IMG/VR virus record: IMGVR_UViG_2690316227_000016
Length of the DNA: 8,280 bases
Strand: one strand, 5' to 3'
Source: a virus
Taxonomy: Duplodnaviria > Heunggongvirae > Uroviricota > Caudoviricetes
The notes below the pieces were generated by a model, which was given only the letters and a program-made list of their open reading frames with translations, was not told the origin of the DNA and made no database searches. Below are positions 2,651 to 7,194 of this stretch, in pieces; the stretch's first letter is position 1, and each line of letters begins with the position of its first letter. The position numbers and the translations under genes are program-made.

Positions 2651-2848
2651 ATGGTTGCCGTAAATCATATACCACACCTTGTACACACACAAACGGCCTT
2701 TGTGTGGCGTTTTCTGGCCCTGAGTGCCGGAGAATCTCAAATCATCCACGTAACCGCCTGGACGGAACGCGAAGCGCGTAGCCGTTGCCCGTCCGGTTGT
2801 GTTGCTGTATTCGCCGCCCGTATTCGTCAGGGGTCACATCATGCGTAA
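2651..2848 (+). CDS. Icd-like small protein, copy 1 (host cell division inhibitor Icd-like family, tentative)
   Basis: 65 aa with an AGGAG 6 nt upstream of ATG 2651. Shares the motifs FVWRF...T...TEREAR...FxARIRQG with the ORF at 3135. The family name is from recollection of P4-like prophage annotations, not a search. Confidence 0.5.
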   Translation: MVAVNHIPHLVHTQTAFVWRFLALSAGESQIIHVTAWTEREARSRCPSGCVAVFAARIRQGSHHA

Positions 2849-2868
2849 AAACCGCTTGCAAAAAATTA

Positions 2869-3105
2869 TAACGGGGCTGTATGCTTCCCCCGTCGCCCAC
2901 ATGGCGACCGGGTTTAGCAGCCTGAATACTGTAGCGGACAGCCGCTTATATTCCGATATGCGGTTTTTTTGTGTCCGTAAGCCTACCCATACCCGCATTA
3001 TGGCGGGGCGTAACGGGGGAGCCTTTGCGCTCGCTGGTTCCTACAGTGCCAGTCTGCTAACCCTGTTACGTCTCGCCACCCCGTTTAGCAGCGTAGTAGC
3101 GAGAC
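2869..3105 (+). repeat. Duplicated non-coding module between the Icd-like genes
   Basis: TAACGGGG at 2869-2876 and 3011-3018. GTTTAGCAGC at 2912-2921 and 3083-3092, followed by GTAGCGGACAG and GTAGCGAGAC respectively. A near-complementary CTGCTAA-CCC element sits at 3054-3063. Small hairpins at 2871-2893, 2892-2908 and 2992-3007. Confidence 0.4.
2934..2970 (+). terminator. Intrinsic terminator-like hairpin plus T7
   Basis: GCGG-aca-GCCGC (2934-2945) and a CCGC...GCGG stem (2942-2963) followed by T7 (2964-2970). It lies inside the apparent N-terminal extension of ORF 2799..3299, which argues that the extension is non-coding. Confidence 0.5.
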
Positions 3106-3134
3106 TCCTTAAAATTACTGTAGGAGCCTTTCAC

Positions 3135-3299
3135 ATGGCTGTATCCGCACGCCCTTACTTTGTCTGGCGCTTTATGCAGTGCCACCACAGCTGCATTGAT
3201 GTATTCACCGTTACCGCTGCCACTGAGCGCGAAGCACGCGCCCAGCTGCCGCACGCACATCTGATTTTTGTCGCCCGTATTCGTCAGGGGGTTTTGTGA
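3135..3299 (+). CDS. Icd-like small protein, copy 2 (paralog of 2651..2848)
   Basis: 54 aa. The TAGGAGCC ribosome-binding context 8 nt upstream of ATG 3135 mirrors that of copy 1. Conserved motifs YFVWRF, TEREARAQLP, FVARIRQG. Its TGA stop overlaps the next start (TGATG at 3297-3301). Confidence 0.5.
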   Translation: MAVSARPYFVWRFMQCHHSCIDVFTVTAATEREARAQLPHAHLIFVARIRQGVL

Positions 3300-3531: not shown

Positions 3532-3831
3532 ATGAAACTTAAATATCCTGGCTTAACTGCCAGCGGCAAAACTCGCACTAAATTCATGTGCGGGGATATT
3601 TACCGCGATAAGTACGGCGGAACGGTAATGATTAAGGGCGTGGAGGAACGGCGCGTAACTTACCGCCGTGAAGGCTACGAATATGATTGCGTTATGCCTG
3701 TTTATCAGTTCGACCGTGATTTTTATCTGGTACAGGCAGCGCCCCGCAGTAAGCCAACCAGCAGGGAGAAAGCACGCGCCAATATTCAGGAAATAAGAAA
3801 GATGTTGAACGTATTCAGGGGTAAAAAATGA
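3532..3831 (+). CDS. Hypothetical protein (99 aa)
   Basis: Begins MKLKYPG. Its stop overlaps the start of the replication ATPase (ATGA at 3828-3831). Protein-like composition; possibly a prophage DUF family, unverified. Confidence 0.5.
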   Translation: MKLKYPGLTASGKTRTKFMCGDIYRDKYGGTVMIKGVEERRVTYRREGYEYDCVMPVYQFDRDFYLVQAAPRSKPTSREKARANIQEIRKMLNVFRGKK

Positions 3832-5237
3832 AACTTGCACCGAACGTAAAACAATTACCGAAAGACAAATACACCGAAGCAATTATTTTCGCGGGGAATG
3901 ATGCGCACTCATTTGCAGAGCACTACATCATTGCACAGGCCAAAAAAGCAGGCGATCCAGTCCCCCCCGTTTATCTGGGGTGTTATCAGTTAAGCGAACT
4001 GGATAACCTCCAGATTGTTGATGATGGGCGATACAGGGCGACGGTGATACGCGCCGGAAATATTGAAGAGCCGCAGCTGTTAACCATCGCCACGAAACTG
4101 GCGATCGCCGGAGTCCAGGAGGCGCGGCTAATTTCTGAAAATTTCGAATTGCTGGAGGAATGGAACGACCAGCTTCCACGGCTTAGGGAGGCATGGGAAC
4201 GCGGGGAAAGCCTGGTCATGAAAAAAATCCCCCAGCGAAAAACCACGCTACCGATGAGCGTTGGATCTACCGGATACGACACGCAGCTTGATTACGTGGT
4301 AAAGGGGATTATTCCGGCATCGTCGCTTTGCAGCATATACGGGGCGAGCGGTTCCTATAAATCATTCCTTGCCGGATCGTGGGCGTGTCACGTTTCCACG
4401 GGCCGCCAGTGGGGAGGCCGCAGGGTGGCGCATGGCGCTGTTCTCTATGTGGTTGGTGAAGGCGGTATTGGCGTTCCGCGTCGTGTAAAAGCCTGGGAGG
4501 TTGTGCACGGGGAGCAGGTGAAAAATCTTTACCTTGTAAACCGTCCCATCTTTCCGGCTGTCCCGCTTGATGTTGATGAACTGGTTATTGCTGCCAGCCA
4601 GGTTGAGCGGGAAACGGGTAAACCGGTTCTAATGATTATTCTGGACACGCTGGCGCGTTGCTTTGGCGGCAATGACGAAAATGACTCCCGTGACATGGGG
4701 GCGTTTATCCGTGGATGTGACGAACTGAAACGACGCACAGGGGCCACGGTGCTGGTGGTTCACCATTCCGGCAAGGATGAAACAAAGGGCGCGCGTGGTT
4801 CCAGTGCATTCCGTGCATCGCTGGACGCTGAATACAGGATACGCAGAGAGGACGCAGGAAGCGAAGCGCTGGTCATCTCATGCACCAAAATGAAGGACGC
4901 GGAGGAACTCAAAGAGGCTGCCTATGATTTGCGGGTTGTGGAGCTTTTTACCGACGCTGACGGCGAATTAATTACGTCGCTGGTGGTGGTGGATGAGCCG
5001 CGCCCACCCGTTGAACTGGAGCGCATCGAGGAGGCAGGCAACAAGACGGAAAACCATACCGCGCTATGGGGGTGCATCCGTTCACGCACACAGAACGGCG
5101 ACAAGTGCACGATCCCGCTGTTGCGTGATGACATGAAGAAGATGGGATACGAAATGAAGCACTTCCGGCGCTGGCTGGGCAAGCTGGAAAAAGACGGCGT
5201 TATCTATGTTGACGGCGATGATGTAGGGCCACTGTAA
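3828..5237 (+). CDS. Replication ATPase/helicase, RecA-like (AAA_25/RepA-type); probable satellite replication initiator
   Basis: 469 aa with a P-loop-like GASGSYKS, a Walker B-like PVLMIILD, and the VLVVHHSGKDETKGARGSSAFRASLD block typical of RepA-like NTPases. The C-terminal roughly 100 aa could be a DNA-binding domain. An iteron array follows directly. Confidence 0.85.
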   Translation: MKLAPNVKQLPKDKYTEAIIFAGNDAHSFAEHYIIAQAKKAGDPVPPVYLGCYQLSELDNLQIVDDGRYRATVIRAGNIEEPQLLTIATKLAIAGVQEARLISENFELLEEWNDQLPRLREAWERGESLVMKKIPQRKTTLPMSVGSTGYDTQLDYVVKGIIPASSLCSIYGASGSYKSFLAGSWACHVSTGRQWGGRRVAHGAVLYVVGEGGIGVPRRVKAWEVVHGEQVKNLYLVNRPIFPAVPLDVDELVIAASQVERETGKPVLMIILDTLARCFGGNDENDSRDMGAFIRGCDELKRRTGATVLVVHHSGKDETKGARGSSAFRASLDAEYRIRREDAGSEALVISCTKMKDAEELKEAAYDLRVVELFTDADGELITSLVVVDEPRPPVELERIEEAGNKTENHTALWGCIRSRTQNGDKCTIPLLRDDMKKMGYEMKHFRRWLGKLEKDGVIYVDGDDVGPL

Positions 5238-5440
5238 AAAGTGGGAAGTAAAAGTGGGGAGCATGGGGAATTTAACAAAATTTAAACACGCTTCCCCACT
5301 TTTCGACCTGTATACACCCCAAAAAGTGGGGAGCAAAAAAATCCTTATGAAACAGCATGATAAAAATTACAAATCCCACGCCTTTAACGAGGTGGGGAAT
5401 TGTGAAAAGTGGGTAGTAAAAGTGGGTATAGGTGGGGAAA
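5237..5440. repeat. Iteron array, putative replication origin
   Basis: Six full copies of AAAAGTGGG(G/T)A at 5237-5246 (ending in A rather than G/T), 5250-5260, 5293-5303 (inverted), 5322-5332, 5405-5415 and 5418-5428, plus half-sites GTGGGGA at 5392-5398 and 5432-5438. AT-rich stretches are interspersed, and the array starts at the stop codon of the replication gene. Confidence 0.6.
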
Positions 5441-5448
5441 TAACCAAA

Positions 5449-5691
5449 ATGCGCAGAGACAGAACACAGCAAAAATATAAAGCGTTAGACATGACAGAGC
5501 ACGCTTTAAAGGTGGCAATCAAAGTTATAGACCGCCACACGCGGGAAGGATACGCGAATGAACATCCCGAACTGATAAGCGCATTCATGACCACAGCGGC
5601 GGCAAACTTTGCCACGCTGACAGAACGGGAGATTGCCGAAGCGGAACAGGTAACAACCATCAACGTTAAAACCGGAGAGGTGGAATCATGA
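5449..5691 (+). CDS. Hypothetical small protein (80 aa from ATG 5449; track ORF extends to 5254 across the iterons)
   Basis: The stop overlaps the ssb start (ATGA at 5688-5691). The upstream extension is encoded by the iteron repeats and is probably not translated. No family recognised. Confidence 0.4.
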   Translation: MRRDRTQQKYKALDMTEHALKVAIKVIDRHTREGYANEHPELISAFMTTAAANFATLTEREIAEAEQVTTINVKTGEVES

Positions 5692-6098
5692 CAGCACAGA
5701 TAGCAGCTTACGGGCGGCTGGTGGACGACCCGCAGGTAAAACAGACCAGCAAGGGCACACCGATGACGCTGGCGCGTATGGCGGTATCACTGCCATGCAG
5801 TCAGGCACAGGACGGACAGGCGACGTTATGGTTATCGGTCATCGCATTTGGCAAACAGGCCGACCAACTGGCAGGACATGAGAAAGGCAACGTAATCAGC
5901 TTATCCGGCGTGATGCAGGTCAGTCAGTGGACCGGACAGAACGGGGAGACGCGTCAGGGTTATCAGGTCATTGCCGACAGCGTAATCAGTGCGAAAACGG
6001 TGCGACCAGGCGGGAACAGACGCAAGACCACAGGCACACAGGGTAATCAGCCACCAGCGGGAGGCGATGATCCTTACGGTGATGATATTCCGTTCTGA
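5688..6098 (+). CDS. ssb: Single-stranded DNA-binding protein (SSB family)
   Basis: 136 aa with an OB-fold-like N-terminal region (GRL..DP, W at about position 48, FGK, KG), a Gly/Pro/Gln-rich linker and the characteristic acidic C-terminal tail DDIPF. Confidence 0.8.
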   Translation: MTAQIAAYGRLVDDPQVKQTSKGTPMTLARMAVSLPCSQAQDGQATLWLSVIAFGKQADQLAGHEKGNVISLSGVMQVSQWTGQNGETRQGYQVIADSVISAKTVRPGGNRRKTTGTQGNQPPAGGDDPYGDDIPF

Positions 6099-6107
6099 AC
6101 GCACAGG

Positions 6108-6130
6108 CCGGAGCAATCCGGCTTTTTTTC
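6108..6130 (+). terminator. Rho-independent terminator after ssb
   Basis: GCCGGA-gcaa-TCCGGC hairpin (6108-6123) followed by T7 (6124-6130). Confidence 0.7.
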
Positions 6131-6217
6131 AAACTCTCATATCTTCAAAAATGGTTAATTAATGATAATCTATCGAAAATACTGATTATGCGATGATAAG
6201 TATCAGGAGGAAACAAA

Positions 6218-6412
6218 GTGGAAGAGATAAAGCAAAGCGCTACCGTGATGATTGATCATGAAATCCTTAACGAGCTTAAAAAGTTGCAGTTCGATATTGT
6301 TCGCCGGATGAATGAATCGGGCATCTACGGCAGAGCCGCCACGCCAACAATAGGTCATCTTGCACGTGTGCTGTTACGCGAAAGACTGGGCATTGCAACA
6401 GGTGAGGCATAA
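6218..6412 (+). CDS. Hypothetical small protein (64 aa, GTG start)
   Basis: Strong AGGAGG at 6205-6210, 7 nt before GTG 6218. Could be a small DNA-binding protein, but this is unverified. Confidence 0.45.
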   Translation: MEEIKQSATVMIDHEILNELKKLQFDIVRRMNESGIYGRAATPTIGHLARVLLRERLGIATGEA

Positions 6413-6415
6413 CAA

Positions 6416-6577
6416 ATGGCTATCACAGAACGCGAGGCAAGCATCATTAAGGCCATTGGCGAGGAAACAAGAGACACAATAGCGCCATTGATGGAAAAGA
6501 TCGCAGAGCTTGAGACACGAATAAACAAGCTGAGTAATGAAGTTGAAGGCCTGATCTCGTTACTCGGTGAGCAATGA
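6416..6577 (+). CDS. Hypothetical small helical protein (53 aa; not in the ORF track)
   Basis: Translated by hand from ATG 6416 to TGA 6575-6577 as MAITEREASIIKAIGEETRDTIAPLMEKIAELETRINKLSNEVEGLISLLGEQ. It starts 4 nt after the previous stop and has coiled-coil-like composition. Confidence 0.3.
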   Translation: MAITEREASIIKAIGEETRDTIAPLMEKIAELETRINKLSNEVEGLISLLGEQ

Positions 6578-6580
6578 CAT

Positions 6581-6630
6581 GGGGGGGTATCATCCGGCGA
6601 AAAAAACGATCGCCACGGACACCGCCCCCC
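6581..6630. repeat. Imperfect inverted repeat capped by G7 and C6 runs
   Basis: GGGGGGG (6581-6587) and CCCCCC (6625-6630) with partly complementary arms (CCGGCG and CGCC) around an A7 centre. No T-run follows. Confidence 0.25.
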
Positions 6631-6660
6631 GTCTCATTCGTAGAAAATTTTGCTTTTCAA

Positions 6661-6684
6661 AAAAGTTACACGAAAAGTTACACC
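6661..6684 (+). repeat. Tandem 12-bp repeats AAAAGTTACACG / AAAAGTTACACC in the terS leader
   Basis: Two adjacent 12-mers read directly. The exact 12-mer AAAAGTTACACC recurs at 6927-6938 inside terS. Confidence 0.55.
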
Positions 6685-6705
6685 CCCTCAAAACGAGGTT
6701 TTTGC

Positions 6706-7194
6706 ATGGCATTAACGACCAAAAAAAAGCGGTTTGCTGATGCGTTATCAAGGGGCGCAAATCCCACGGAAGCCGCTATACATGCGGGATACAGCGAAAA
6801 GACCGCAAGGGTTAAAGGCTGGCAGCTATCCAACGATCCTGAGGTGAAAAAGTATCTTAAGGCTGTAACTTCTGATGTAACTTTTCAGGTTACAAAACCG
6901 AAAAAAGTTACAAAGAAAGTTACCGAAAAAGTTACACCGGAACGGGCATCAATTAACACCATTGAGATGATGGATAACGGCCTACCCGACCCCATCAAAG
7001 CAATGGGCAGGATACTGATTGACAACATGGACACAGATCCAAAACTGGCTTTAGATGCCGCGTTTAAGCTGGCCCAGTTCACCCACCGCAAGATCGGCAG
7101 CATTGGGAAAAAAGAGGTTAAAAAACTCAATGCCGCTAGTGTCTACTCAAATCGGTTCCCCATCCCTAAGCTACCAACAGACTTAAAACACTGA
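6706..7194 (+). CDS. terS: Terminase small subunit (Terminase_2 / SaPI-TerS-like family)
   Basis: The N-terminus KKKRFADALSRGANPTEAAIHAGYSEKTA matches the conserved HTH of Terminase_2 small terminases (KRFA...AAI.AGYS.KTA). GAGG lies 8 nt upstream of ATG 6706. The track ORF from 6574 is an untranslated in-frame extension. Confidence 0.7.
   Translation: MALTTKKKRFADALSRGANPTEAAIHAGYSEKTARVKGWQLSNDPEVKKYLKAVTSDVTFQVTKPKKVTKKVTEKVTPERASINTIEMMDNGLPDPIKAMGRILIDNMDTDPKLALDAAFKLAQFTHRKIGSIGKKEVKKLNAASVYSNRFPIPKLPTDLKH
6864..6938. repeat. Phased GT(A/T)AC array inside terS (12-bp period, both orientations)
   Basis: GTAAC at 6865 and 6877, GTTAC at 6889, 6907, 6919 and 6931, with spacings of 12, 12, 18, 12 and 12 bp. 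Encodes the VT-x-x repeat in KPKKVTKKVTEKVTPE. Confidence 0.5.

Follow-up and report, generated by a model that had tools for sequence, protein, structure and literature searches.

A conserved 80-residue gene located behind the iteron origin of an Escherichia phage-inducible chromosomal island and of elements with unrelated replicases

Results

Organization of the island

The stretch of DNA analyzed here (8,280 bases, hereafter the window) is an Escherichia-type phage-inducible chromosomal island (PICI) in which all genes run rightward. Its integrase and the features around its origin are listed below.

1-1242, + strand: integrase, an island gene
3828-5237, + strand: RepA-family (AAA_25) replicative helicase/initiator (Pfam AAA_25, E 3.7e-42; PHROG 2850 over its full length)
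5238-5438, no strand assigned: replication origin with two iteron sets and an AT-rich spacer (AAAGTGGGGA-like copies)
5238, 5251, 5293 (- strand), 5323, 5389, 5406, 5419 and 5429: positions of the iteron copies
5449-5691, + strand: 80-aa gene of the PHROG 1231 family, between the iteron origin and ssb
5674-5691, + strand: ribosome-binding site of ssb (GGAGAGGTGG, 5674-5683, in the last codons of the 80-aa ORF) and the ATGA overlap
5688-6098, + strand: island ssb (Pfam SSB, E 2.6e-15; TIGR00621 above cut-off)
6105-6131, + strand: terminator-like hairpin AGGCCGGAGCAATCCGGCTT followed by a T-run (consensus scan), 7 nt after the ssb stop

An AlpA-like regulator, an Icd-like/Ash region (named after the annotation of relatives) and a DUF4222 protein lie between integrase and helicase, and ssb is followed by two small ORFs, a small terminase and a capsid-family protein. 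Homologues of the product of 3828-5237 are labeled "helicase RepA family protein" by PGAP. The closest complete E. coli genome was that of strain CD45 (97% identity across 94% of the window), where the island adjoins tRNA-Pro between yejM and yejO. DNA of the rep-origin-ORF-ssb junction was matched in 1,578 of 5,426 complete E. coli genomes, at up to six places per genome.

The origin contains eight AAAGTGGGGA-like iteron copies with 0-2 mismatches, three of them exact, and the two iteron groups are separated by an AT-rich spacer at approximately 5333-5388 (GC 0.35). Only 10 nt separate the end of the last iteron from ATG 5449. In Fillol-Salom et al. 2018 (PMC6092414), the Gram-negative PICI module is described as pri/rep followed by an iteron origin, and the origin as iteron sets around an AT-rich region directly 3' of rep; the layout of the window is the same. 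Shared with the PICI module are int, an alpA-like gene, the RepA helicase, iterons, the ORF, ssb, terS and a capsid gene in a unidirectional order. The 80-aa gene is co-directional with, and lies directly 3' of, rep and the iteron origin, which is the position expected of a gene of the PICI replication module. The literature excerpts consulted put primase, DUF5906 and SSB in this module, and SSB is classed under "Replication" in PMC10111431. The passages of PMC6092414 and PMC10111431 consulted name rep, ori and SSB and leave the small gene unnamed.

Two other features of the island were observed. An Rfam C4 antisense RNA (RF01695) was found at 2996-3083 (+ strand); it scored 71.5 bits (gathering score 45) and aligned to the model over its full length. 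This RNA is of the immunity type, of the P1/P4 kind; it lies inside the Icd-like/Ash region and overlaps a mechanically called 166-aa ORF (2799-3299). C4/isrK matches are known in Gram-negative PICIs (PMC10111431). In addition, the mechanically called 206-aa ORF of the small terminase (6574-7194, + strand) is probably overlong: its PHROG 641 match begins at residue 45, and terS of the closest E. coli island has 162 aa (PGAP), which implies a start at ATG 6706 in the window.

The 80-aa ORF is a gene that starts at ATG 5449

The region 5449-5691 encodes a genuine, widely conserved gene. The ORF extends from ATG 5449 to TGA 5689-5691 and specifies a 9-kDa protein of 80 aa, and its stop codon forms a 4-nt ATGA overlap (5688-5691) with the ssb start codon (5688-5690), exactly as an earlier note on this DNA had described. 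That note had held that a frame not conserved in related islands would speak against the gene; we found the sense frame open in all 83 loci (82 relatives and the window), and this objection falls away. The ATGA junction GTGGAATCATGA was kept in nearly all of the 83 loci, the next gene being either ssb or an inserted 101-aa gene. Variable sites were distributed 11/9/31 over the three codon positions (41 distinct core sequences), with a pN/pS (dN/dS) of about 0.20-0.23, and in E. coli genomes the NCBI pipeline already lists the product as a hypothetical protein.

The alternative that there is no gene here, the ORF being a chance open frame, the 3' flank of the origin or the complement of a true antisense product (98-aa ORF, 5367-5663, - strand), is effectively refuted and receives virtually no weight: the antisense frame is open across all 46 close variants and the first ~60 nt of the sense ORF are AT-richer than the remainder, but the antisense frame has the higher pN/pS (0.34 versus 0.23 for the sense frame) and is kept open at best in 11 of 53 distant family members, the sense protein family is detectable across phyla at 25-40% identity, and the neighboring genes are all on the + strand. 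Sharing its wobble positions with the sense ORF, the antisense ORF was judged to be a shadow frame.

The earlier note had allowed for a form of up to 145 aa, read back through the iterons. Such a frame exists mechanically from GTG 5254, but it lacks conservation: the length of the open upstream frame differs between relatives (92 to 154 codons), as do the upstream start candidates. Amino-acid conservation begins at about residues 10-14 of the 80-aa form. A later start at the internal ATG 5491 is disfavored by the conservation upstream of this position. In many relatives an ATG occurs 9 nt before the start, and since this codon reads ATA in the window, ATG 5449 is the best start here.

Distribution and conservation of the family

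The window protein matched PHROG 1231, annotated as "unknown function", with an E value of 1.2e-49 (residues 2-80 against profile positions 5-83 of 83), and the same PHROG was matched by 29 of 29 diverse homologues tested (alignment A2). The best-matching database proteins share 96% identity with the window protein. Family members named "hypothetical protein" by PGAP include WP_024174166.1 and WP_042101652.1. Members in E. coli islands occupy the same slot between the RepA helicase and ssb, and the window copy shows no substantive difference from these relatives, apart from the ATA at the site of their upstream ATG and its own start at ATG 5449. The ORF is a further member of a catalogued, uncharacterized family that is already annotated as hypothetical in many genomes.

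A word-indexed search yielded 153 close homologues, almost all of them in E. coli, Shigella, E. albertii or Citrobacter. When 1.84 billion cluster representatives were searched exhaustively with a profile, 644 matched at E<=1e-3, and these come from several bacterial phyla. A scan of species-representative genomes with a 16-sequence alignment, a minimum estimate because of the restrictive search pattern, located members in Verrucomicrobiota, Alpha- and Betaproteobacteria (Nitrosomonas, Achromobacter) and a cyanobacterium, as well as in Desulfobulbaceae, Bacteroidales, Xenorhabdus and Raoultella. The window protein had no tblastn match in 50,697 GenBank phage genomes, and a distant member matched one of them; five E. 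coli "plasmid" records carry the gene. The near-absence from isolated phage genomes indicates that the family is found chiefly in satellites, in prophage-like elements and in viral contigs from uncultivated sources.

The conserved core spans approximately residues 14-66. Alignment of diverse members gave the core motif IDxxxGxGYAKxHPEL(I/V)xAFMxTAAxDF, of which GxGYAKxHPEL is the most conserved part and reads REGYANEHPEL in the window protein (residues 32-42). The window core is IDRHTREGYANEHPELISAFMTTAAANF, in which the nearly invariant residues I27, D28, G34, Y35, A36, H39, P40, L42 and M47 are all present.

Other resources returned little for this protein. There was no Pfam match at E<=0.1 and no PADLOC match, NCBIfam gave only a sub-threshold match (12.6 bits; cut-off 187), and searching PDB sequences with a profile found nothing. 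The diverse members tested gave no Pfam, NCBIfam or PADLOC match either, except for a T5orf172/MUG113 domain fused to one of them. The names of 153 and 319 homologues were all "hypothetical", "prophage protein" or "uncharacterized", and the literature consulted gives no function or functional study for this gene. A few distant members are fusions (P0208, 179 aa; P0175, 205 aa; P0158, 187 aa): one has an N-terminal T5orf172/MUG113 (GIY-YIG-like) domain, and the others carry uncharacterized N- or C-terminal extensions.

Predicted fold

AlphaFold2, run with a 108-sequence alignment, predicted a two-helix hairpin with a pLDDT of 84.6, in which two long helices (residues 5-30 and 40-74) are joined by a tight turn that includes a one-turn helix (35-38). 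In this model, conserved residues spaced i, i+1, i+4, i+5 line the helix-helix interface, and the hairpin tip is also built of conserved residues (GxGYAKxHPE). An acidic core (pI 4.8, residues 14-80) follows a short N-terminal tail, which is basic in enterobacterial members. A Foldseek search with two AlphaFold2 models found nothing in PDB with E<=0.001, and in BFVD only uncharacterized phage proteins that are apparently family members. The 80-aa protein does not appear to be an SSB or OB-fold protein itself, as its prediction is all-helical and it has no SSB Pfam match. The homology and structure prediction suggested by the earlier note supplied a family and a fold, but no functional label.

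The gene follows unrelated replicases and different iterons

To describe the genomic context, ORFs were called and neighbors classified in 182 family-bearing loci among L001-L184, with replicase-like ORFs (primase or helicase) defined as matches to nine seed proteins. After dereplication, 57 of the 87 loci had a replicase-like ORF that shares the strand of the family ORF and ends at most 900 nt before it, usually at a distance of 200-350 nt; no replicase was detected in 24 of the 87. The upstream replicases belong to at least six unrelated Pfam architectures:

RepA/AAA_25
D5_N+DUF5906, with or without Pox_D5
Zn-ribbon-Toprim-DUF927
Zn-ribbon-Toprim-D5_N, which we take to resemble phage P4 alpha
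VapE
PrimPol+DUF5906 and PrimPol+DUF3987

Six gaps between replicase and ORF were inspected, and each contained a different iteron:

RepA/AAA_25 (window): AAAGTGGGGA
D5_N type (L160): GGTAGACA
Toprim-DUF927 (L091): TGAGACAACC
VapE, 752 aa (L097): CTACTTAAC
DUF5906, 760 aa (L137): GGTGGCA
VapE, 479 aa (L133): TGTCACAGGT

In replicon types other than that of the window, some 10-80 nt separate the last iteron from the start of the called ORF. The reciprocal analysis, starting from the replicases, found a family ORF downstream in 76 of 78 RepA-seeded and 76 of 78 D5_N-seeded loci, a synteny that amounts to guilt by association among loci many of which are close relatives and not independent samples. 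Identical core alleles, e.g., DMTEHTLKVAIRTIDRHTREGYAKEHPDLISAFM, were found behind RepA, D5_N and Toprim-DUF927 replicases. This observation implies a recombination joint between origin and ORF, and it also means that the protein is not specific to one initiator or iteron; a protein matched to a particular initiator or iteron is thereby ruled out.

More distant members occur in various surroundings. Some distant phage contigs carry the gene amid replication genes, either PolA, endonuclease VII, PD-(D/E)XK, SNF2 helicase and DUF927 or PolA/UDG. One member is located directly before a portal gene, and several have neighbors of unknown function only. A homologue of antiterminator Q comes next in several VapE- and DUF5906-type elements. 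The portion of the literature that was searched does not mention that the same small gene comes straight after origins with unrelated replicases and iterons.

Linkage to ssb and exchange in the origin-ssb slot

Among 77 usable loci found with the island SSB as seed, 75 had the ORF upstream. The two genes met in a 4-nt overlap in 62 loci, and an extra 101-aa gene intervened in 13. The exceptions were a locus with an IS insertion and one in which an unrelated 139-aa gene has taken the place of the ORF but retains its first ~10 codons. Four replicase-seeded loci were also exceptional: three had neither the ORF nor ssb, and one had an unrelated 257-aa gene. These cargo swaps suggest that the small gene is bounded on either side by a recombination joint, and because some islands lack the gene or carry an unrelated one in its slot, it is dispensable for at least some islands. 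The linkage is confined to the enterobacterial clade. An SSB was found anywhere in the locus in only 15 of 68 dereplicated distant-seeded loci, and universal ssb linkage was ruled out.

Individual loci illustrate the contents of the slot. The inserted 101-aa gene (e.g., L002, 3489-3794) has no Pfam match and overlaps the small ORF by a 4-nt ATGA. The 257-aa protein (L341, 4107-4880) keeps the last codons of the family (KTGEQTA) together with the ssb overlap, the 139-aa protein that begins with family codons is encoded at 2585-3004 of L267, and the insertion that truncates the small ORF lies at about 2400-2990 of L207. A basic protein of ~175-180 aa (TKLTINRKPKG...RQRKNRRRVNRL...PKPLKVGIFDDL), which presumably resembles ProQ/FinO-type RNA chaperones, was found after the replication module in some islands (L336, 4380-4922; L341, 5336-5860), and in L336 it stands in place of the ORF and ssb.

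The acidic C-terminal tip of E. coli SSB is a docking site for partner proteins. The island SSB keeps such a tip (...DDIPF; ...GGDDPYGDDIPF) and could thus engage host replisome or repair proteins.

Expression

A consensus scan found no sigma-70-like promoter between 5000 and 6300, and the hairpin at 6105-6131 (called with its T-run at 6105-6124 in the scan) was the one feature that could end transcription, about 1.5 terminator-like sites being expected by chance in the scanned region. Downstream of the hairpin there is a 90-nt, very AT-rich stretch (GC 0.23-0.30), followed by the next ORF at 6218; together they have the look of an operon boundary that separates the replication module from the packaging module. 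The lack of a promoter in this interval and the terminator-like hairpin after ssb suggest that rep, origin, ORF and ssb form one transcription unit, and the ORF is probably expressed by transcriptional read-through of the origin. The Shine-Dalgarno-like site in its last codons and the ATGA overlap form an arrangement typical of translational coupling, so we infer from the layout that the ORF and ssb are co-transcribed and translationally coupled.

If the origin is read through, expression tied to origin occupancy, as the earlier note had proposed, would be possible in the window. The same allele occurs behind three replicase/iteron types, with varying distance to the iterons, and iteron-specific control is therefore not a family-wide property.

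Discussion

Genomic context is the only functional clue for this gene, and from it we infer a role in replication and the identity of possible partners. Our preferred interpretation, which is tentative (probability roughly 0.45), is that the protein is a generic accessory factor of the satellite replication module and acts after origin opening via its conserved hairpin tip. The "replication accessory factor" of the earlier note would fit the conserved slot after replicase and iteron origin as well as the coupling with ssb. In this scheme the 80-aa ORF would be the promoter-distal part of the island replication operon, with transcription probably arriving from upstream through rep and the iteron origin, translation beginning at ATG 5449 and translationally coupled synthesis of SSB following. 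The target would be single-stranded DNA, SSB or a host replisome component, contacted through the invariant motif of the hairpin tip; action with the initiator or on the iterons themselves seems unlikely.

A plasmid carrying rep-ori of EcCICFT073 replicated in E. coli, and the available part of the source (PMC6092414) does not state whether a homologue is present in the clone or the island. Given this replicating clone and the dispensability of the gene in some islands, an essential role is unlikely, and if the clone has no homologue, the gene would be at most an enhancer.

Comparison with small replisome partners of phages and bacteria, such as helicase loaders and SSB-interacting proteins that dock on the C-terminal tip of SSB, gave a mixed picture. 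On the side of similarity, the ORF is probably coupled to a DDIPF-tipped SSB, lies beside helicase-primases and was lost together with ssb in three islands. However, no homology was found, and outside Enterobacteria the family usually has no adjacent ssb.

A different explanation, which is possible and on balance unlikely, is that the gene belongs to the early operon without serving replication, and encodes a host-takeover, anti-defense or helper-interference protein; it could, for example, inhibit a host nuclease or a replication protein of helper or host. Such a role would suit a protein that is small and acidic, shows neither an enzyme nor a DNA-binding fold and occurs only in mobile elements. 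The origin-ssb slot is also a recombination hot spot with other cargo (the 257-aa and 139-aa genes, and the 101-aa gene in 13 loci), and enrichment in satellites, with near-absence from isolated phages, could reflect conflict with helpers. On the other hand, a strong motif and a pN/pS of ~0.2 across phyla are atypical of fast-evolving counter-defense genes, no PADLOC or anti-defense family matched the window protein, and the positional link is tighter to replicase and origin than to any other neighbor.

A more specific form of the replication hypothesis appears improbable at present. Here the protein would be a universal, initiator-independent satellite adaptor, a dimeric hairpin whose invariant GxGYAKxHPE tip docks a replisome component conserved in all bacteria or SSB-coated single-stranded DNA. 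If this is true, it would link at least six unrelated helicase-primase types to the host DNA polymerase machinery or, alternatively, shield satellite replication during takeover by the helper phage.

It is doubtful, and we rate the chance as small, that the protein is a regulator at the origin, either a copy-number or timing controller with Rop/Cop-like logic or a switch from replication to late functions or packaging. Rop/Rom of ColE1 plasmids is a small dimer of two antiparallel helices encoded near the plasmid origin. The outline of the predicted hairpin resembles such small helical-hairpin regulators, and in both cases a small two-helix protein (here predicted) is encoded beside a replication origin. 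The position of the gene at the boundary of the origin and the downstream modules, and the antiterminator Q homologue that follows it in several VapE- and DUF5906-type elements, would also agree with a switch. However, there is no sequence or Foldseek similarity to Rop, which is absent from the PDB matches listed, and Foldseek found no other regulator; neither a helix-turn-helix nor a Pfam regulator domain was detected. Conservation in PHROG 1231 is concentrated at the hairpin tip, and the island uses iteron/helicase initiation, in contrast to the RNA-primed control of ColE1, so that the likeness to Rop/Rom appears to be one of shape only. Finally, the same allele together with three unrelated iteron/replicase systems argues against sequence-specific action at the origin.

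Should the gene prove to have no more than an accessory or conflict function, the origin would still have gained a fixed right-hand boundary and the gene its true start, with the 145-aa and antisense readings removed. Relatives of the gene occur in several phyla, yet it has no name, Pfam family or solved structure. As it stays behind the origin despite swaps of replicase and iterons, it is a candidate for a shared part of the satellite replication machinery that has so far been missing.
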